Below are positions 30,422 through 50,958 of a stretch of DNA of 64,000 bases, piece after piece (position 1 is the first letter of the stretch; each line of letters opens with the position of its first letter). Source of the stretch: Leptonemataceae bacterium (GTDB lineage: Bacteria > Spirochaetota > Leptospiria > Leptospirales > Leptonemataceae); assembly GCA_965227295.1 (NCBI GenBank), contig OZ245742.1, forward strand, positions 4,000,001-4,064,000. The letters run 5' to 3'. Made by a program: the position numbers and the translations under genes. The notes beneath the pieces were generated by a model, which saw nothing but the letters and a program-made list of their open reading frames with translations, did no database searches and was not told the DNA's origin.

Positions 30422-33157
30422 ATGTCCCGGAAAACAGTGAAAGAGCCGTTGCGCATCCTGAAAACCCCCGATCCAATTTTCTGGCAGGCCGGTTTTGACG
30501 AGGAGCGTCCCGCTCCGGCCGCCCTGGAAAGCCTGGAGCGCGGGCGTCGGCCGGTTTCCGGTAGACGCCCCGAAACAAAGACGTCTGCTCCTGCAGGAGC
30601 GCCTGCACCGGCGCAGCCCGAAAGCACGTCCACGCCACCGGCCCGGGAACGGGTCTTTACCCGTGAGCTCCGCAACGTCACCGGAAACGTCCTGAAACAC
30701 CGGCCGTCTGCCGGGGTCCGGCCGATTCGCCGGGAATTGCGGCGCCCTCTGGATCCGCCGCCGCGCGAAGAATCTGAACTGCACGAGGAACCGCCGGCCG
30801 CGGCAGAGTCACCGGCGCCTGCACCGGCCGCGGAAAAGACCTCACATCCCCTGCGCCGCCTGCGAAATCACGAGGGCGAATTCACGCCGCCGAAGTCGTT
30901 GCCGCCGGGTGCCGAACGCCCCTGGCTCCGGTCCATCCGCAAGGAGACGACTCCGGATGCGCCGGATACAAAGTCCGCTCCGCCGGCGGCGGAGATCAGC
31001 CCGGCCCCGCCCCTGAAAGAAGAAGAAACGTCCCCGGTTCCGCCGGAGACCGGTGCCGCCCAGGCGGAAATATCGCCGCCTCCGCCGCTGTACTCGGAAA
31101 CGAAACCGGCACCACCGCCGGAGGTCGTCCTCCTGGAATCGGATGATCTCGTTTCGTTGCCGGAGCACGTTCGGGGGGCGGCCCGGGTATTACAGACCGT
31201 AGTTGTAGAATCGGAGTCGTTCGCAGCTCCGGATGAGGAAAAAGCGGCCGCGGCGGAACCGGTAGAGGTTCCGCCGCAGGCAGAACCGGACGTGGCTCCG
31301 CCCGCGGTCGAAGAACCGGCGACGGTCCTCGTTGAGGTGGATCGCACCGAAGTGGGCGAACCTGCCGTCGAGGAACCTGTCGTGGAGGGACCGCCCGAGC
31401 CGGAAGCGAGTACTGTCATAACTGCTCCGCCGGTAGTCACCGCTGACGACGAAGAAGATACGTCCGAACTCCTCGACGATCCGGACCTGGACGCCCCGCC
31501 CATGACCGTGACCCCGGTGGTGGCTGCGGTTCCGACGGCCGAAGCAATTGTAGAGGAATCGGACGGGGGCGATGATCCCGCGCAACCGAAGACTCAGTCT
31601 GAGGCCTTCCCGGACGAGGGTCTGGACGAAGAAGAACTCCCGGAAGAATCCTCCAGCCTCAAAGACGAGTTCTTCGACGAAATTCGCAAGGGCGACAGCG
31701 ACGATGATCTCGGTGATATAGTCATGAGCAAACCCGCGTCGGCAGGACCGACTCCCGGGCGCGATACATCCGATCCCTTCGATGTTGCCGATGACGATCC
31801 GATCTTTCTGAGCCCGCTCGAAAACGAAAATGATATCGAGGACGATTTCGTAGCCGGGTCGCCCAGGGCGAAGGGCGATGCGCCGGACATGGAAGAGTTT
31901 CTCGAAGTGGATTCCGGCCTGGATCTGGAGCTCGGCCTCGACCAAAAAATCGACGAACACATTCGCGAGAGCCTGTCGGAACCATCCCCCGGGGCGACAC
32001 AATCGGCCCGGACGCCGGAGGGCAGTGAAGAAGAGGACATCCTCCTCGATGACTCCGAACTGGCCGACCACATTCTGCACGAGGAGTCGGGTCCCGTGCC
32101 CGAAGCCGTACCTGTCGTTGAAACCCGGTCTTCGCAAGATGCGCAGGAACCGGAGCAATCAGAAGAGTCGGAAGGACCGGAGGCCACCGCCGCAGCGCAG
32201 TCGGGGGTCGCCTCCGTGCCCGTTGCCCGGCCGTCCGGCGAACCGCGCATCAGCGACAGGCTGCTGGCGGAGACAGACTCCCCGCTGCCGGACAACACCA
32301 CGATCACGCTCCAGAAGCTGTATACGAAACGCCGCATTGAATCGACGGACTTTCATGAAATCCTGGACCTCGTTCTCGAAAAGAGCCGGGCGGACGCGCT
32401 GGCCTTTCTGTTGCTGGATTCCATGCAAATGGTCTTCCGTACGCTTGTAGGGCGCGGGCTCGACGAAGCCTCCGAACGCAATCTCTACATCGGCATCGAC
32501 GATCAGTACGTCGGCAGCGAATCGCACTTCCAGACGATTCGTTTTAACAGCGACGCCATGCGCGAGGACTTCCACTTCAAGAAGCGTTTCAGCACGGACT
32601 TCTTCGAACGCATGGACGGTCTGTACATCATCAACCTGCACCCGTCCGGACTTCCCGGGTTCCTGGTCCTGGCCTATGAAGACCTGAATCGCCTGGCCGA
32701 AAACGTACTGGAGATTACGTTGCCGCCGATCATGCGCGACGTGCTTCCGGTACTGAACCGCTACCGTACGATTGCCTGGGAACCGGAGCATCAATCCGCG
32801 GTGGACTCAAGCATCGTGGACGAAATCTACAAGTTACTCAAGCACGTCTCCCGCAGCGGACGCGACGAACTGTGCGTCATCCATCTGCGTTTTCCGGGGC
32901 TCTTGCAACAGAGCGCCTGGCGCACCCGGTTGGCCCGCATCGCCGAGTCGTTGTCCACCGCCATCGGTCCCGGTGAGAAATTGATCCGCGCCACGCCCGA
33001 GCGCCTCATTTTAGTTTTGAAAGAAACCTCGCCGGACAGCGTCATCGGCGCGGCCCGGGAGAGCGCCGGAAACTGGGGCCAGGGCCTCAAGCATAGAATC
33101 CTGAGATATCCGGAGTCCGGCAGGAACTTCTACAACTACATTGCTCCGGGACTCTAA
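30422..33157 (+). CDS. Hypothetical protein: long Pro/Glu/Asp-rich disordered region plus a globular C-terminus
   Basis: 911-aa ORF whose stop overlaps the next start; composition. Confidence 0.7.
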   Translation: MSRKTVKEPLRILKTPDPIFWQAGFDEERPAPAALESLERGRRPVSGRRPETKTSAPAGAPAPAQPESTSTPPARERVFTRELRNVTGNVLKHRPSAGVRPIRRELRRPLDPPPREESELHEEPPAAAESPAPAPAAEKTSHPLRRLRNHEGEFTPPKSLPPGAERPWLRSIRKETTPDAPDTKSAPPAAEISPAPPLKEEETSPVPPETGAAQAEISPPPPLYSETKPAPPPEVVLLESDDLVSLPEHVRGAARVLQTVVVESESFAAPDEEKAAAAEPVEVPPQAEPDVAPPAVEEPATVLVEVDRTEVGEPAVEEPVVEGPPEPEASTVITAPPVVTADDEEDTSELLDDPDLDAPPMTVTPVVAAVPTAEAIVEESDGGDDPAQPKTQSEAFPDEGLDEEELPEESSSLKDEFFDEIRKGDSDDDLGDIVMSKPASAGPTPGRDTSDPFDVADDDPIFLSPLENENDIEDDFVAGSPRAKGDAPDMEEFLEVDSGLDLELGLDQKIDEHIRESLSEPSPGATQSARTPEGSEEEDILLDDSELADHILHEESGPVPEAVPVVETRSSQDAQEPEQSEESEGPEATAAAQSGVASVPVARPSGEPRISDRLLAETDSPLPDNTTITLQKLYTKRRIESTDFHEILDLVLEKSRADALAFLLLDSMQMVFRTLVGRGLDEASERNLYIGIDDQYVGSESHFQTIRFNSDAMREDFHFKKRFSTDFFERMDGLYIINLHPSGLPGFLVLAYEDLNRLAENVLEITLPPIMRDVLPVLNRYRTIAWEPEHQSAVDSSIVDEIYKLLKHVSRSGRDELCVIHLRFPGLLQQSAWRTRLARIAESLSTAIGPGEKLIRATPERLILVLKETSPDSVIGAARESAGNWGQGLKHRILRYPESGRNFYNYIAPGL

Positions 33158-43427: not shown

Positions 43428-46400
43428 TCAATTCTCAGACGACTTTTTCTTTTTCGCGGCTCGCTGTTTTCTCGGCGCCTCGGTGGTTGCATCTTCTTCC
43501 TGTCCCTGCGCGCGCCCGATCAATCCCAGCACGCGTGCCTTGCCGAACATCCACAGGCGACCGAACGCTAACCTTGCATCAACGTTATTTAAGTAAAAAC
43601 ACGGAATTAGAAACAAAGAGATCTGCGTCGACAGGATGAGTCCCCAGGCGATGGCGAGCACCATGGGTTCGATGAAGGGATCCGAACCACCGACCCCGTA
43701 GGCCGTCGGCAGAAGACCGGTGACCGTGGTGATGGTGGTGATGATGATCGGCCGGAGGCGACGGGCCGCGCCGGCGACGACGTCCGGAATCAGTTCGTTG
43801 GCGCTGGTATAACCGCCGGCGGCTTCGCGATCGGCGCAGAGTTTGTTGATGAACTCCACCATCATGAGCGAGTTGTTTACGACGATGCCGGAGAGTCCGA
43901 TCACGCCGATGAGACCGAGAAACGAAAACGGTCGGTCGTGAAAGTAAAAGGCCCAGATGACGCCGATCAATCCGAACGGAATGGCCGAGAGTACGACCAG
44001 GGGCTGCGTCAATGAGTTAAAGAGCAGCGTGAGCACGAGATAGATCGCGACGAAGCCGCCGATGAAGGCGAACATCAGCGACGCCATGGACTCGGCTGTT
44101 TCTTCGGCCTCGCCGCCGTAGCTGAACGTGACGCCGGGATATTCCTGCGTTTCTTTCGTGTACTTCGCGAGGATCTGATCGATGACGCCCTGGGGCTGCG
44201 TGGCGATGCCGGTCTGTGCTTCGATGGTCGTGGTGACGTCGCCGTCCGTATGCTGGATCGCCGTCTCGGCGCGGATGCGAGAAAGTTTCGCGAAGGCGCG
44301 CACCGGAACGAGCTGGCCTTGCTGATTGCGAATGTCCAGGTCGAGGACGTTGCGTACCTCGCGGCGATGTTGCACCGGAAAACGCACGCGGATGTCGATC
44401 TCCTCGTTGTTGCGTACGATGGATGTCGAGTCGATGCCGTCGAAGGCGATGCGGAGCGTACTTGCCACATCCTGCACGGTCAGTCCGGCGGCGGCCAGGG
44501 TATCGTAGGTGATGTCGAGTTTGTACTCCTCGCGACCGAGCTCGGCGGAGGTCGTCACGTCGTAGACGCCGTCCATCGCTTTGAGATCGGCGACGATCTT
44601 GTTCACGAAGAGCGCGCGGTCTTCGTCGTTGTCGGAATGGACGCGGAGTTCGATGGGTTTGCCCGCGGGAGGACCGGGCTTCTGAAGTTCCGTGCGAATC
44701 TCTTTGGCGCCAGTGACGGTGCTCATGATTTTCTCGCGGGCTTCCTCCAGGATTACACCCGCTTCGCGTGAGCGTTCGGAGAACGGGACGAGCGTTACCT
44801 GTAGATACGCCAGGTTTTGTTCGCCGCCCACCGGAGCCGCCAGGTTGTTCGAGACGTCCGTGCCGATGCGCGCCGTGTAGTACTCCAGTTCTTCCGCGGG
44901 AATTTCATCGATGATCTTTTCGATCTGCACGATGACTTCTTCGGTGGCATCGAAGGTGGCCTCGTCCTCCAGCTCGACGTACACGAAAAACGTATCCGCC
45001 CCGTCCGCCGGAAAGAGGTTGAACGGCACCAGCTTCGCCGCGCCGTACAACGAACCGAACAACAACAAGACGGCGCCGAGCGAGGTCAGATAACGATGCC
45101 GGAGCGCGATGGGCAGCGAGGCGCGGTACGGAATGGCGATGCCGTCGAAGAGCCGGTCCTGCCAGGTGCGCTGCGGTTCCGATCCGGCGGCGCCTTCGTT
45201 CTCCCGCAGCGTATGCGTAAGGTGATTCGGCATGATCAAGAAGCCGTTAAACAAGGAGCCGATGAGCGAGGCGATGATGACGGCCGGAATCACGAAGATG
45301 AACTTGCCCATGGTTCCGCTCATGGCGAACATCGGCCCGAAGGCGAGCACCGTCGTAAGTACCGACGCGACGACGGGCATAATCACTTCGATCGTGCCCG
45401 ACAGGATGCCGTCGCGTTTCGAACGCCCTTCTTGAATATGGACGATGGAGTTTTCTGAAATTACGATGGATTGATCGACGATCATCCCGAGGGCGATGAT
45501 CATGGCCGCGAGACTGATCGCGTTGATGTCCACGCCCGCCGCGGGCATAATGATGAGCGTGATGGCGAAGGACGTCGGGATCGACAGGGCGATGAGGAAC
45601 GATGAGCGAAAATCCAGGAAGACGATGAGGATCACGACGACGAGAAAGAAACCGATCACCGCGTTTGAAGCCACGACGCTGATGCGGTTGCGCACGACCT
45701 TCGAGGAATCGTTCGCCGCGGAGAGACGGATGTTCTCCGGCAGGACCGTGCCTTTTTCGTCGAGGTACTCGTAGATGCGGTCTACCGTGCTGATGATGTC
45801 GGCGTTCGCCGATTTTTTTACGATCAGCAGGATTCCGCGCTTGCCGTCGAAGATCGTGCGCATCATTTCATCGCCGTAGCCTTCTTTGACCTCGGCCACG
45901 TCTTCCACGCGCACGTCGCCGCCGCCGAAGGCGGAGCGCACGATCACCTCCCGCACGTCTTCGATGGTTTCGAACTGCGACAGCGTGAGAATGTTGCGCT
46001 GCGTGCGATACGACTCTAAGTTTCCACCGGTGGCTCTTACGTTGCGGCTGTCCAGGGCGAACAGGATGTCGTTGAGGGCGATGTACTGTTGCTTGAGTTT
46101 CGCGGGATCCAGGTCCACGTGGAACTCGAGATCCCGGTACCCGTATTTGTCGATCTGCGATACGCCGCGGATGCGTTTGATGTCCCGCTCGACGAGCTTC
46201 GCCGTGCGCCGCAGTTCGCCGTAGTCCGCGTCCCCGGAAATCCCGACGACGAGGACGGGGATCTCCGATGACTTGAGATCGCGCACCTCCGGTCGACCGT
46301 CCACCTCCGCCGGCAGGTCCGACACCCTATCCACGGCGCGGCGGATCTCGTCTTTGACCTCGTCCTGATCCGGATAGTCGATGTCGATCTCCACCGTGAT

Positions 46401-46670
46401 CGACGACACGTTCTCCGCGGACACCGACTTGAAGTTATCGATGCCGGCGATGCCCTTGAGTTCGTCCTCGATGAGCCGGGTGACGTTCTGTTCCACGTCT
46501 TTGGGCGACGCGCCCGGGTAGCGCGTGGTGACGATCATGGTGCCCAGGTCCACCTCCGGGAACTCGTTCCGGTTGATGCTCAGGGCCGTGGAAAAGGCCA
46601 CGCCGAAGATGCCGATGAGCACGATGTTGACGAGGAGGGTGCGGTCCAGGAAGAACTCAATCAAACGCAT
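43428..46670 (-). CDS. RND efflux transporter permease subunit (AcrB/AcrD/AcrF family)
   Basis: YPGASP.DVE, GMIVDQSIVISEN, GIVVNNS, RLRPIIITT, 12-TM layout. Confidence 0.93.
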   Translation of the reverse strand: MRLIEFFLDRTLLVNIVLIGIFGVAFSTALSINRNEFPEVDLGTMIVTTRYPGASPKDVEQNVTRLIEDELKGIAGIDNFKSVSAENVSSITVEIDIDYPDQDEVKDEIRRAVDRVSDLPAEVDGRPEVRDLKSSEIPVLVVGISGDADYGELRRTAKLVERDIKRIRGVSQIDKYGYRDLEFHVDLDPAKLKQQYIALNDILFALDSRNVRATGGNLESYRTQRNILTLSQFETIEDVREVIVRSAFGGGDVRVEDVAEVKEGYGDEMMRTIFDGKRGILLIVKKSANADIISTVDRIYEYLDEKGTVLPENIRLSAANDSSKVVRNRISVVASNAVIGFFLVVVILIVFLDFRSSFLIALSIPTSFAITLIIMPAAGVDINAISLAAMIIALGMIVDQSIVISENSIVHIQEGRSKRDGILSGTIEVIMPVVASVLTTVLAFGPMFAMSGTMGKFIFVIPAVIIASLIGSLFNGFLIMPNHLTHTLRENEGAAGSEPQRTWQDRLFDGIAIPYRASLPIALRHRYLTSLGAVLLLFGSLYGAAKLVPFNLFPADGADTFFVYVELEDEATFDATEEVIVQIEKIIDEIPAEELEYYTARIGTDVSNNLAAPVGGEQNLAYLQVTLVPFSERSREAGVILEEAREKIMSTVTGAKEIRTELQKPGPPAGKPIELRVHSDNDEDRALFVNKIVADLKAMDGVYDVTTSAELGREEYKLDITYDTLAAAGLTVQDVASTLRIAFDGIDSTSIVRNNEEIDIRVRFPVQHRREVRNVLDLDIRNQQGQLVPVRAFAKLSRIRAETAIQHTDGDVTTTIEAQTGIATQPQGVIDQILAKYTKETQEYPGVTFSYGGEAEETAESMASLMFAFIGGFVAIYLVLTLLFNSLTQPLVVLSAIPFGLIGVIWAFYFHDRPFSFLGLIGVIGLSGIVVNNSLMMVEFINKLCADREAAGGYTSANELIPDVVAGAARRLRPIIITTITTVTGLLPTAYGVGGSDPFIEPMVLAIAWGLILSTQISLFLIPCFYLNNVDARLAFGRLWMFGKARVLGLIGRAQGQEEDATTEAPRKQRAAKKKKSSEN

Positions 46671-46849
46671 TCATCAATGAATTGATCAGGGGACCGGATC
46701 GCAACCAAAAGACACACGTCGCCCATCCCCGTGGGTGGTTTTTGGTGGTGGGATGATACTGGTGCATGACCTACCGGAGGCGCCGCGCGGCGGCCGCCCT
46801 GGTGCGATTAGCTGAAAAATGCGCGGCGGTCAACGAAAAATGTCACACC

Positions 46850-47718
46850 TTTCTCACGGCAACGCAACGAACCGCAGCTCTTGAATTACCGGCACGCTCG
46901 GGTAGCTCGCACACGCCCCGGATCGTAGTGTAAGTGGCGGCCAGTGTACATTAAGACTTTTATGGGTCCGGCTGGTTCCAGCTGACGGGCGGAGGTCATG
47001 CCGGGGAATGTGGTAGGGCGGACCGGAACGGCGTCTTCCTCGCAGCATTCGCCAACGGGAGCTGACTCACAAACCGACGTCCGGTGTCGGCAAGGCCCCG
47101 CTTATTGGGGCCGCGGCAGTTGGTTCCCCACTGACGGACAGTCTTAACAAAACGAAAATCCACAACTCCCGCTCAGCTGTAGCAAAAAAAGTCCCTTCAA
47201 CATTGCGCAACTTACTTCGTGTTTCTCACGGCAACAGTCACGAACCGCAGTAGCGGGTAGTTCGCACACGCCCCGAATCGTGGTGTAAGTGGCGGCCAAC
47301 GTAAATTAAGCCTTTTGTGGGTACGGCTGGTTCCAGCTAACGTACGGAGGTCATGCCGGGGAATGTGGTAAGGCGCACCGGAACGGCGTCTTCGCCTTAA
47401 GAAACGCGACGGTAACTGAGCCGCAAACCGACGTCCGGGTCGAGACGGACAGTCTTAACAAAACGAAAATCCACAACTCCCGCTCAGCTGTAGCAAAAAA
47501 GTCCACTCCCCCATTTCACAACTTACTCCATGTTTCTCACGGCAACGCAACGAACCGCAGCTCTTGAATTACCGGCACGCTCGGGTAGCTCGCACACGCC
47601 CCGGATCGTAGTGTAAGTGGCGGCCAGTGTACATTAAGACTTTTATGGGTCCGGCTGGTTCCAGCTGACGGGCGGAGGTCATGCCGGGGAATGTGGTAGG
47701 GCGGACCGGAACGGCGTC
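46850..47718. repeat. Non-coding tandem array A1-B1-A2-B2-A3 (units of 372 bp and 311 bp plus a 186-bp partial unit)
   Basis: 46850-47035 is identical to 47533-47718; diverged copy at 47222-47390; B blocks 47133-47194 and 47444-47504 differ only in one A-tract length. Confidence 0.95.
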
Positions 47719-47836
47719 GTCGCTTCGGAAAAGCCACCAGGCGAAGGCGCACTCCGGAGCACCGCTCCGGCTCCGAATCGTGAGACCCCAAACGATCCTT
47801 GACGCCGTCGCCCGCATCCCCACGCTATCCCCGCCC

Positions 47837-49018
47837 ATGCAACAACGCATCATAACAGTCATCATCCCGCTCATCTTAGTCGCGGCCCTCTCAACCTGCA
47901 AACCCGAACCCGCCAACGCCCAAAGCGAACGTTTCCCCGACCTGTTTCGCATCGAATGCGTCGGCAAAATCGAAGGCTGCGCCTGCTACACCGGCGCCAC
48001 CGGCAACGCCCGCAACAACGTCGCGTACCATGCCGAAGCCGCACGATCCACCGGCGCCGCGGAAAACGGCCGCGTCCCCATTGAACTCGAAACCCGGGGC
48101 GTAAGTTGCTGGTATCCCGAAACCGAATTGCGGCCCATGCCGTACGCTAAAGTCCCCGAATCGCCACTTAAGAAAATCGACCACACGCCGAAGTCCCTCG
48201 ATAAAATCGTGCCCGGCGCCACGGTGGAGTCGCTGAGTCAAAAACCGCATCGTTCGTTGGGCCGATTCTGGGCCACGTACTATCATCTCGCCGATGAACA
48301 CTATCATCCCGGCAAAGAGGTGGCCGTAAAAACGCCGGCGGGTTTGGAACTGGGGCGTGCTTCGGAAGATTTTCTCAAGCAGGTCACCTGGCAGGGCAGC
48401 GGCATCGCAAAGAACGGCCTGCGGCTGCACTACAGCGGATCGAACATGCGTTTCAACACCTACGCAAAAGACATGTGGGGCCACGGCGCCGGCTACGGCT
48501 ACCGTGTGTTCCCGTACCGAACGATCGCCGTTAACTTTCGTGGAGTGTGTGCTAAGATCTTCCCGAACAAAAAACGCTGCGGCAAAAAACAGGTGATCGG
48601 CAGTCTGGTGCGCATCCGCGAGGTGGCCGCGAAGAACATCGCAATGCCCGGCGGTACGATCCACGACGGATACTTCTGTGCCACGGATACCGGCAGCCCG
48701 CACTACATAAAGTCGGATCGCATCGATATCTTCGTCGGCGTACACGGCGGCGGCAATCCGTACCTGCCGCCGGAGCGCAGATCGAACGCGCTCATCGCCG
48801 GCGGCATTCGGAACCTGGTGCCGTCCGACTGGCGCCTCTGGAAAAACAAGAACGATCGCGTCTGGTGCGATGCGAACAAGCTTCCGACGGATCCCGCGCG
48901 GCCGAAGCCGGGGGACTGCACCTACGACTACCACGTCGTCGCGCAACAGAAGGCCCTGCACATCGACGTGGTCCTGGACGGCAAAGGCAATCCGATACGT
49001 TGTGCGAAACGGCCGTAA
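47837..49018 (+). CDS. Putative lipoprotein with a 3D (MltA-like) domain
   Basis: MQQRIITVIIPLILVAALSTC lipobox-like; ATYY, RTIAVN, ATDTGS...IKSDRIDIFVG. Confidence 0.7.
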   Translation: MQQRIITVIIPLILVAALSTCKPEPANAQSERFPDLFRIECVGKIEGCACYTGATGNARNNVAYHAEAARSTGAAENGRVPIELETRGVSCWYPETELRPMPYAKVPESPLKKIDHTPKSLDKIVPGATVESLSQKPHRSLGRFWATYYHLADEHYHPGKEVAVKTPAGLELGRASEDFLKQVTWQGSGIAKNGLRLHYSGSNMRFNTYAKDMWGHGAGYGYRVFPYRTIAVNFRGVCAKIFPNKKRCGKKQVIGSLVRIREVAAKNIAMPGGTIHDGYFCATDTGSPHYIKSDRIDIFVGVHGGGNPYLPPERRSNALIAGGIRNLVPSDWRLWKNKNDRVWCDANKLPTDPARPKPGDCTYDYHVVAQQKALHIDVVLDGKGNPIRCAKRP

Positions 49019-49146
49019 GATAGTTTCGTTTCCGACCAATCCCCCGGCGCGAATTTCCTGATCTTCGCGAAAGCACTTTACAACCGTCCCGGCGCGGAAA
49101 ATCCTATGGGCGAAGGTCGCCGCGCCGCCGATACAGAACCACAGGC

Positions 49147-50958
49147 ATGAACGCTCATCCGCACATACTCCGTAATCTCACGCTGCGCCTGGAAAGCTTC
49201 GCCGTATTCATTCCGATTCCCTTTGCGTTCTACATGGTCTTCGTCGGCAGCAACGCCGACATCGGTCGCCTGCTGCCGCACGGCATCATCTCCGGCAGTG
49301 TTCTCGCCGTTATGATTCTCGGAAGCTGGATCGTGCGCTACCTCATCCTGCGGCCGTTCTTTGCGTTCCTCGACGCGCCACAGAGTTTTTCCGGAAACGA
49401 TGCGGAGCGCGAGCACCTCATCCTGGATATCAAGCGGCGCCTCCTGGGCCTGCCGCGCATCGAGGCCGGCCTGGTCGGGCTGCGCTGGGTGGTCGGCGGC
49501 ATCGCGGCCCTGGGCCTGGGGCAACTCTTTCTCGGTCTCAAGTCCCTGGAGATCGCCGCGACGCTGGGCGGTATCCTCATCGTAACGCCGGTGACCATGG
49601 TGGGTTACTTTTATCTGACCGAAAACTACGTGGCGTCCGTGTTGAGCGAGGAGGATGTGGCTCGCGTCCTGTTGCCGGAAGAATCGCGCCGGGCCGTCGG
49701 CTTTCGCTGGAGATTTCTCGCAACCATCGGTTCCGTCGTGCTCATGCCGCTCGGGGTCTTCGGTTATCTACTGATGATGATCGCCTGGAGTTACATCGAA
49801 ATCCAGCTCGTGTTGTTTCACGTCATCGCCCTCATTCTGCTGTTCGTTGTTACGGTGACGGTGGTTTCGGGAGTGGCGGCCGCTTCGTTTCTACGCACGG
49901 TGGCGTCCATGCAGGACACGGCGCGCAACCTGGCCGCCGGTGACTTTCGCGGCATCGTCCCCCAGCTTTCCACCGACGAACTGGGGGAGACCACGATCTA
50001 CTTTAATCAGATCGTCCAGGCGGTTTCCAACGTGCTGCGTTCCATCCGTGCCGAGGCCGCGCACATGACCGAGGTCTCGCGACGCCTGGCGAACGGCAGT
50101 CGCGGCCTTACGACGAACACGCAGGAGCAGGCCTCATCTTCCGAAGAGATCTCCGCGGCGCTGGAGCAAATGGCGGCGAGCGGCGAGAACGTTACGAAGA
50201 ATGCCCGGGAGCAAAGCGACGAGGCGCGCCAGGCGGATCAGGAGATCGACGAGTTTCACAGTCAACTGGAAACCGTTCATCGCAACGCCGGCCAGGCCGC
50301 CGAGCGTGCGGAGATGTCCTATCAGAAAGCTGCCGAGGGCGAGGAATACCTGGAAGCCACCGTGCAAACGATGCAGGAGATCTCACAAAACACCGATCGC
50401 ATCGTGGAGGCGATGCAGTTGATCAACGAGGTCGCCGATCGCGTGAATTTGCTCTCGCTCAACGCCTCCATCGAGGCCGCGCGGGCCGGCGAGTACGGTC
50501 GCGGATTCGCGGTGGTCGCCGACGAAGTCTCACGCCTGGCCGATCGTACCCAGGAGCACGGGCAGACGATTCTGGAACTCGTCAATCACGCGGTGGAGCG
50601 TTCGCGGGAAGGCATGCAGTCCATCCAGGAGACCTCGCGGGTCTTTCAGGAAATCATTCGCAGTACGCGCGAGAACAAGAATCTCATCGACGGCATTACG
50701 AAAGAGATCGACGGCAACTTCAAGACCAGCGACTCCGTGCGCACGAAGTTTGCAAAAGTACAGAAGATGTCCTCCGATACCTCGAACGCCCTCGACGAAC
50801 AGTCCCGCACGAACCGCGAGTTGACGGAGGGGCTGCATCGCATCAGCATTGCCACGACGGCCATCACCGAAGCCGCCGAAGAAGTGGCCCGACTCTCCGG
50901 CGACCTGGCCGATCGGGCGTCGCAGTTGGACTCGGACATTCAGTTTTTCAAGGTCTGA
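49147..50958 (+). CDS. Methyl-accepting chemotaxis protein (multi-TM, HAMP)
   Basis: [36 protein letters not shown] motif. Confidence 0.95.

Follow-up and report, generated by a model that had tools for sequence, protein, structure and literature searches.

The tandem array at positions 46850-47721 of a 64,000-nucleotide stretch of a Leptonemataceae bacterium chromosome (NCBI GenBank assembly GCA_965227295.1, contig OZ245742.1, positions 4,000,001 to 4,064,000; hereafter the window) probably belongs to a large family of mosaic tandem repeats, extragenic and non-coding, which either act or simply persist at the DNA level. The genome that holds the window (G000) is a single contig of 5,938,550 bp with 59.8% G+C, in which the window is C1:4000001-4064000. 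The family is best read as a new, large-unit variant of the extragenic repeats typified by repetitive extragenic palindromic (REP) sequences, bacterial interspersed mosaic elements (BIME), and Neisserial intergenic mosaic elements (NIME), enlarged by local duplication. An initial annotation of the window had proposed an array of structured non-coding RNA (ncRNA) units with covariation or a non-autonomous mobile element. The ncRNA half of that proposal is unsupported by the Rfam, folding, and covariation tests described below, whereas the mobile half came nearer, the array being part of a gene-less repeat that is dispersed genome-wide.

A BLAST search of the genome with one unit as the query recovered 405 pieces in 110 clusters. 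A profile hidden Markov model (HMM) built from 26 clean units and applied with nhmmer delineated 331 segments totalling 72,120 bp, or about 1.2% of the genome, which form 117 single-orientation arrays, or 115 loci once overlaps are merged. The arrays extend from a fraction of a unit to about seven units, and within each of them the units run head to tail in one orientation at a modal spacing of 328-331 bp, such that each unit position is covered by approximately 200-240 copies. Array ends cluster at set positions: left ends at unit positions 41-60 (34/117), 181-215 (27/117), and 1-20 (20/117), and right ends at 191-245 (44/117) and 21-80 (37/117). The unit is therefore a mosaic of a module M1 (positions 1-50), a highly conserved core M2 (~52-200), and a linker M3 (~200-330). 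Solo copies in this genome begin at about position 52 and are core-only or approximately one unit long, and in about 15 of the 29 core-starting arrays the upstream gene ends, with its stop codon, 2-13 nucleotides (nt) before the anchor CGCCCCGAATCG. An optional G+C-rich hairpin of about 60 nt, module H, is placed after position ~200; its 46 copies comprise 21 at the right ends of arrays, none at left ends, 22 inside arrays, and three elsewhere. Conservation along the core is uneven, with positions 171-191 being 94-100% identical in 220-239 copies, except for position 174 (64%), and positions 136, 141, and 162 being merely 41-49% identical. Selection on each copy, biased conversion, and recognition by an enzyme are candidate causes of such near-invariant blocks in more than 200 copies.

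The A1-B1-A2-B2-A3 layout described by the initial annotation is real. Three A segments of 189 bp (A1, 46850-47038; A2, 47205-47393; A3, 47533-47721) are spaced by 355 and 328 bp and separated by two B segments (B1, 47039-47204; B2, 47394-47532), all on the plus strand. Each A segment consists of M1 and M2 and each B segment of the linker M3. A3 is 99% identical to A1, A2 is near the family consensus and 73% identical to A1, and the B copies, aligned at 47133-47235 and 47444-47546, are 89% alike. B1 is longer than B2 by an insert of about 45 bp (~47086-47130), a GGCCCC/GGGGCC hairpin within a GTCCG...CGGAC stem, which B2 lacks. This insert is a further optional module, and its sequence (...GGCAAGGCCCCGCTT.TTGGGGCCGCGGCAGTTGGTTCCCCAC...) is found near-identical at no fewer than two other loci of G000, at 3226233 and 4856540. 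A3, the final unit of the array, stops near unit position 200, a frequent array end, and is followed by a truncated left arm of module H (aagcgaaggcgcactccggagc..., 47722-47775, plus strand), the cap that closes many arrays. Both B segments carry a terminator-like hairpin with a T-rich tail, at 47160-47182 in B1 and at 47471-47493 in B2, which pairs only as the minus strand. Read depths fit the assembled order and show that the near-identity of A1 and A3 is no product of misassembly: in a DNA run of short contigs from the same organism (X1), depth is 356-357 over 46856-46942 and 47621-47681, twice the 174-178 of the flanks, and the contig across the B2/A3 junction (47471-47558) has a depth of 178. 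Public short-read contigs break at the array edges and none bridges the whole array. Tandem Repeats Finder returned no rows for it, a failure probably due to the low likeness, about 73%, of neighbouring units.

The placement of the family relative to genes is strongly biased. With a rough gene set of our own (4,520 ORFs, i.e., open reading frames, of G000 picked by codon-usage score) and expectations derived from the intergenic regions of at least 50 bp, 54 of the 115 loci are convergent (19.5 expected), 54 unidirectional (64.2 expected), and 7 divergent (31.3 expected), which gives a chi-square of 81.8 (p ~2e-18). For the 162 array ends that face the 3′ end of a gene, the median distance to the stop codon is 13 bp; it is at most 10 bp in 74 cases and at most 30 bp in 101. 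The whole gap between two converging genes is often filled by an array. The window array itself is one of the seven atypical loci in divergent (promoter) regions. In unidirectional contexts, arrays are co-oriented with the genes in 25 cases and opposite to them in 31. With respect to replication, 72 of the 115 loci (p 0.009) are co-oriented with the leading strand versus 53.6% of genes, a bias too weak to support a single-strand mechanism.

The arrays are non-coding and without sign of being a folded RNA gene. A search of Rfam 15 for a known RNA family gave no match at E ≤ 1 in 46000-48500. The window unit has fold z-scores of +1.05 and +1.11 on its two strands, i.e., it is less stable than its dinucleotide shuffles, and 23 random full units have mean z-scores of +0.45 (plus) and +0.16 (minus), with none below -2. 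RNAalifold, applied to 57 full units over 357 columns, returned -24.5 kcal/mol with a covariation term of -0.59 and a double change in one of 28 pairs. The three helices drawn in the initial annotation were laid on an alignment of 106 cores, 105 of them distinct, with 500 partner shuffles as control. In these helices, 86.3% of cells are paired versus an average of 86.4% in the control (matched or exceeded by 443 of the 500 shuffles), and the covariation score is 0.061 versus 0.068, a value reached by 494 of 500 shuffles. The compensatory change from which covariation had been claimed, GTCCG/CGGGC versus GTACG/CGTAC, holds for the three copies of the window (A-U in A2, C-G in A1 and A3), but of the 105 distinct cores, 10 have A-U at this pair and 2 have C-G, whereas in 93 the two bases do not pair. 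Two stems of the initial annotation can be traced in almost every copy, with 93% of cells paired for the GCTGG-tt-CCAGC hairpin and 91% for the GGAGG..ATGCCG/CGGCGT..CTTC stem, but they show no covariation. The conservation of GCTGG/CCAGC and GAGG..ATGCCG/CGGCGT..CTTC is one of sequence and gives no argument for pairing or against it; the constraint acts on sequence and not on base pairs.

Mutual information with average product correction was also tried as a pairing signal and rejected, its top pairs being neighbouring columns or linked "allelic" blocks (162-170, 242-250, 281-284) and not nested Watson-Crick partners. Since the linked blocks occur in few alternative versions that are shuffled among copies, they are read as recombination between copies. 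A scan of the consensus listed the minus-strand hairpin of M3 (positions 269-276 with 284-291), together with its T-rich tail, as terminator-like, and the region has four terminator-like sites versus 1.4 +/- 1.1 in shuffles. The region scan found no sigma-70-like promoter, and an extracytoplasmic function (ECF)-type minus-strand promoter noticed by eye (GGAAC-N17-GTC) was discarded, its supposed -10 element varying among copies (columns 108-109). At the protein level, no frame is open from end to end in the 59 arrays of 600-2373 bp, in which the longest stop-free stretch has a median of 104-117 amino acids (aa). A small ORF behind GGAGGTCATG was dismissed as well, being 49 aa long in A1 versus 15 aa in A2 and having a conservation line without three-base periodicity.

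The distribution of the family was followed in 40 genomes of the same genus, family, and order, two of them of the same genus (G001 and G002) and 38 more distant; profile searches in these relatives scored the best candidates of a first look. A whole-unit BLAST search found nothing in the 40 relatives except one 52-bp match in G002. The core profile (R1) likewise found nothing among the best candidates scored in the 40, and a separate search of the two same-genus genomes with it gave none in G001 and one marginal match in G002 (E 0.026). The M3 profile (R2) detected at least 14 copies in G001 and at least 23 in G002, with a best E of ~1e-12, and none in 28 genomes of other genera among the best candidates, at most 115 per genome. 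These sister-species copies are solo elements of 65-80 nt (about 75), corresponding to unit positions ~225-300 and without common flanks, which retain the blocks CGTCCGGGCCGA, GCAAAACGA, CCGCATCTCCCGC, and GCCGTAGCC; of 10 copies, 6 are closely flanked on both sides by long frames that converge on them. They have no consensus fold (-1.23 kcal/mol, covarying pairs 0 of 3), and positions 271 and 274 of the minus-strand M3 hairpin are changed in them without compensation. The AcrB orthologues of G001 and G002 are merely 73% identical to that of the window, a distance at which neutral DNA would no longer be alignable, and the retained M3 blocks are therefore under some constraint.

Eight of the frames that flank sister-species loci had a match in G000, which allowed orthologous gene ends to be compared. 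At one of these (69% aa identity over the full length), a 1-kb array lies 101 bp behind the G000 gene and G002 has two small copies; at another (54%, a partial match), the G000 array is 70 bp away; at a third, all that BLAST detects of the unit in G000 is a remnant of 40 bp, some 100 bp away from the end of the gene. The remaining five of the eight have no repeat nearby in G000. Beyond the order, true copies were sought with an exact 21-mer of the core. Seven single matches in GTDB (one genome per species) and 14 in JGI metagenome contigs, all at ≤20.7 bits versus ~124-135 for true copies, were set aside as chance; these scans cover one exact motif and records from which the window genome's own may be excluded. 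No description of this repeat family was found in the literature by searches on general terms.

Copies resemble one another most within an array. The median pairwise identity of cores is 82%, with means of 87.5% within the same array and 81.5% between different arrays, and core pairs that are at least 97% identical number 12 within arrays and 4 between them. This likeness, of which A1 and A3 are an example, indicates that local duplication is ongoing and that spread between loci is old or rare. The family also serves as an integration target, as shown by a 12.7-kb insertion (G000:C1:2989221-3001918) that splits a unit at positions 269-284, has CACAACTCCCG at both junctions, and contains a 347-aa tyrosine recombinase ORF that begins just inside the left junction. 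It is one of four tyrosine recombinase genes in G000. Two others, at 2962888-2963793 and 5671707-5672744, resemble a XerC/XerD pair (31% mutual identity, typical C-terminal motifs); one of these starts 38 bp from a solo copy and the other lies one gene from an array, an adjacency noticed post hoc that may be chance and is given little weight. A model of tandem integration at a single attachment site was rejected on account of array ends at several unit positions. None of the 10 RVT_1 reverse-transcriptase genes of G000 lies beside an array. They are found at 32821, 40883, 765390, 2021332, 2368575, 3069061, 3743265, 4099046, 4553832, and 5028782, fall in part into groups whose members have the same score and the same frame length (2 x 624 aa, 2 x 472 aa, 4 x 456 aa), and look like multi-copy retroelements such as group II introns.

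Anatomy, copy number, placement, the lack of coding and RNA-type signals, and the distribution in relatives are shown by the data, whereas the order of events, the routes of spread, and any function are inferred. The oldest part would be the ~75-nt piece of M3, a solo element behind gene ends in G001 and G002. In the lineage of G000, this piece may have been joined to a lineage-specific core and the composite then multiplied. Within a locus, tandem duplication or unequal recombination would have added units; transposition and ectopic conversion are candidate routes from one locus to another. Copies would survive where they are least harmful or somewhat useful, that is, right behind stop codons and chiefly between convergent genes.

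Several observations weigh against this reading. No mechanism of spread was found, and the label "mobile" would follow from dispersal alone. Y1/RAYT (PF01797), the REP-associated transposase, has no match in G000, while a control search found it in 6 of 14 reference genomes. The 427 proteins flanking the arrays include no recurrent family, a negative answer to the suggestion that one might stand beside other copies. No inverted repeat joins unit or array ends in 45500-49500, and no common target duplication was seen in the junction listings, which were inspected without a dedicated search. Recent movement is little in evidence, since only one between-array match of 200 bp reaches 94% identity. 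The uneven conservation argues for selection or steady conversion on single copies, a pattern that a host function would explain no less well than would a passive or selfish element. Some RNA-level role is also left room by strand-specific hairpins with obligate G-U pairs: as the minus strand, the M3 hairpin pairs in 94.6% of cells and forms all eight pairs in 125 of 187 copies, versus 61.2% of cells and none of 187 copies as the plus strand, and the third core helix requires G-U pairs on the plus strand. Finally, the proposed order of events is drawn from three genomes, all of a single genus, and the gene calls are rough.

These points bear on the other explanations, among which a service to the host is possible but rather unlikely. 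The arrays would then be gene-end elements whose invariant blocks are putative sites for a sequence-specific binding protein or transcript signals, acting as 3′-end insulators between converging units through, for example, termination or a roadblock, relief of supercoiling (a role proposed for BIMEs that bind gyrase), or stability of the 3′ untranslated region. Near-invariant blocks next to free positions in about 220 copies are consistent with this, as are the M3 blocks CGTCCGGG.CGA, GCAAAACGA, CTCCCGC, and GCCGTAGC, retained across species whose AcrB proteins are 73% identical, and the strong enrichment between convergent genes, where the gap is often filled. Each M3 further carries a minus-strand terminator-like hairpin with a T tail, in line with the excess of such sites over shuffles, and BIMEs bind IHF, Pol I, and gyrase and affect mRNA according to the portion of PMC3184786 that deals with them. 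Yet the arrays have no preferred orientation to the preceding gene (25 versus 31), the sister species do not maintain the minus-strand hairpin (positions 271 and 274), no protein emerged as a binding candidate, and five of eight orthologous gene ends are without a repeat in G000, so that the arrays are dispensable there. A bolder version, to which we give a similarly low probability, holds that each unit bears several near-invariant recognition blocks, which selection has preserved in more than 200 copies, and that the arrays, far from being junk, are a bacterial counterpart of satellite or insulator DNA, read at gene ends by a dedicated protein or by the transcription machinery to separate converging units, the genus-wide 75-nt element being the ancestral minimal form.

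A non-autonomous mobile element that owes its insertion and multiplication to a recombinase or transposase gene at another place, for example to a tyrosine recombinase that integrates small circles in head-to-tail order or to an as yet unrecognised enzyme, is improbable. The 115 dispersed loci, the sharp left border (with the stop codon 2-13 nt before CGCCCCGAATCG in about 15 of 29 core-starting arrays), the head-to-tail order of all units in an array, and a hairpin (GAAACG...CGTTC) whose 7-9-nt centre varies and which marks the frequent border near position 50 would all suit such an element, and both Xer-like genes lie beside copies with a third integrase island inside a unit. However, arrays end at three or more different unit positions and not at a single crossover site, identical dispersed copies are lacking, the Xer association is post hoc and concerns two genes only, and the point where the integrase island interrupts the unit (269-284) does not coincide with an array border. 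Genes for an unrecognised structured ncRNA are a still poorer explanation and appear very unlikely. In its favour are conserved hairpins, two of which depend on G-U pairs on one strand, and loops that vary in length where stems stay; against this stand the blank Rfam result, positive fold z-scores on both strands, the lack of covariation, the location of the two strand-specific hairpins on opposite strands, the failure to find a sigma-70-like promoter, and the lack of a fixed orientation of arrays to genes. An assembly artefact or a decayed protein-coding repeat gene is hardly credible. The 330-bp period is a multiple of three and short-read contigs break at the array edges, but the depths of duplicated and unique parts fit the assembled order, the same architecture recurs at about 115 loci of a one-contig genome, and the periods vary between 328 and 331 bp with stops in all frames.

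The immediate surroundings of the window array agree with the statement of the initial annotation that no transposase, nuclease, or reverse transcriptase (RT) gene is adjacent. To the left lies the gene of an AcrB/AcrD/AcrF-family transporter, or pump (43428-46670, minus strand), whose start is 180 bp from the array, and to the right a 445-aa ORF without a Pfam family (47681-49018, plus strand). The first ATG of this ORF falls within A3, and its true start is therefore probably further downstream. Between the start of the AcrB-family gene and the array, the plus strand has a terminator-like hairpin with a T tail (46718-46739) that is directed at the array, although no gene that it might terminate is apparent. 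In the window, the interval 46671-46849 separates the AcrB-family gene from the array; in G001, a 454-aa ORF in the same orientation precedes the AcrB orthologue, and the G000 orthologue of this ORF (81% identity) is located at 312984-314345, 3.7 Mb away; thus, the window array sits at a break in gene order between the species. The cumulative GC skew in 50-kb bins peaks at ~4.05 Mb and has its minimum at ~1.15 Mb, which places the window at the likely replication terminus; an Escherichia coli-like dif pattern had no match in the window. Another abundant dispersed repeat family occurs at G000:C1:5810751-5820166, where segments have 70-120 BLAST matches in the genome. The unit HMM finds nothing there at E ≤ 10, and these repeats thus belong to a different family.

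Among known systems, the extragenic repeat family described here is most readily compared with the REP and BIME sequences of enterobacteria, Pseudomonas, and others, with their GTAG- and CGTC-tagged superfamilies (PMC3733652, PMC3184786, PMC2817692). Like these, the family is gene-less, high-copy, and lineage-specific. It is also a mosaic of few modules (M1, M2, M3, and the optional H), and it shares their placement in convergent and unidirectional regions within about 20 bp of the 3′ ends of ORFs and their rarity in divergent promoter regions. REPs between convergent genes lie less than 20 bp from both ORF ends in the relevant part of PMC3733652, which the array ends near stop codons match, and PMC3184786, in the section concerned, gives the same gene-end placement for the REPs of Pseudomonas syringae and for SPRITE. 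CGTC-type REPs, which according to the part of PMC3733652 devoted to them have no dedicated transposase and occur in Spirochaetes among others, are like the present family in lacking such an enzyme.

The differences from these elements are equally plain. The unit is 330 bp long and the genus-wide piece about 75 nt, versus 20-40 bp for REPs, and there are only inverted repeats of 4-6 bp (GCTGG/CCAGC, CGTC..GACG) and no perfect palindrome of 6-13 bp with a terminal tag. CGTC-type REPs are defined, in the corresponding passage of PMC3733652, by a stem of 8-9 bp starting with A/T pairs, a loop of 4-5 nt, and a CCA tail. CGTC and GTAG are present in conserved blocks of the family (CGTCCGGG.CGA and GCCGTAGCC), but neither adjoins such a stem. 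GTAG-type REPs differ further in that they flank a RAYT gene of their genome, of which G000 has none, and BIMEs in that their REPs alternate in orientation and are separated by a small set of linker motifs, whereas the units here run strictly head to tail. The family is thus not a member of the REP families as that article defines them in the part consulted, yet it fills the same genomic niche.

The arrays differ from SPRITE, a single small element, in having a 330-bp tandem unit of which the terminator-like hairpin is a small part that is not conserved in the sister species. In Neisseria, NIME consist of RS units of 70-200 bp flanked by dRS3 repeats, and dRS3 repeats are prophage integration sites. 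The family resembles NIME as intergenic arrays of repeat units in a size range of about 100 bp, and it resembles the Neisseria repeats as the landing site of an integrating element, the 12.7-kb integrase island inside a unit; however, no dRS3-like inverted repeat of 20 bp lies between its units, and the lack of a recurrent neighbour family shows its arrays to have no link with particular classes of gene. In practical terms, the arrays break short-read assemblies, attract integrating islands, and can pass for RNA genes if few copies are compared. The small solo form in the sister species and the expanded composite in G000, with blocks almost unchanged in over 200 copies, together constitute a natural experiment for testing whether extragenic repeats are selfish, tolerated, or of use to the host, and for seeking a factor that reads the blocks. 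With about 1.2% of a chromosome taken up by 330-bp head-to-tail units at about 115 gene ends, the family is far larger and more elaborate than the 20-150-bp repeats from which notions of such elements derive, those of the REP, BIME, NIME, ERIC, and SPRITE kinds.

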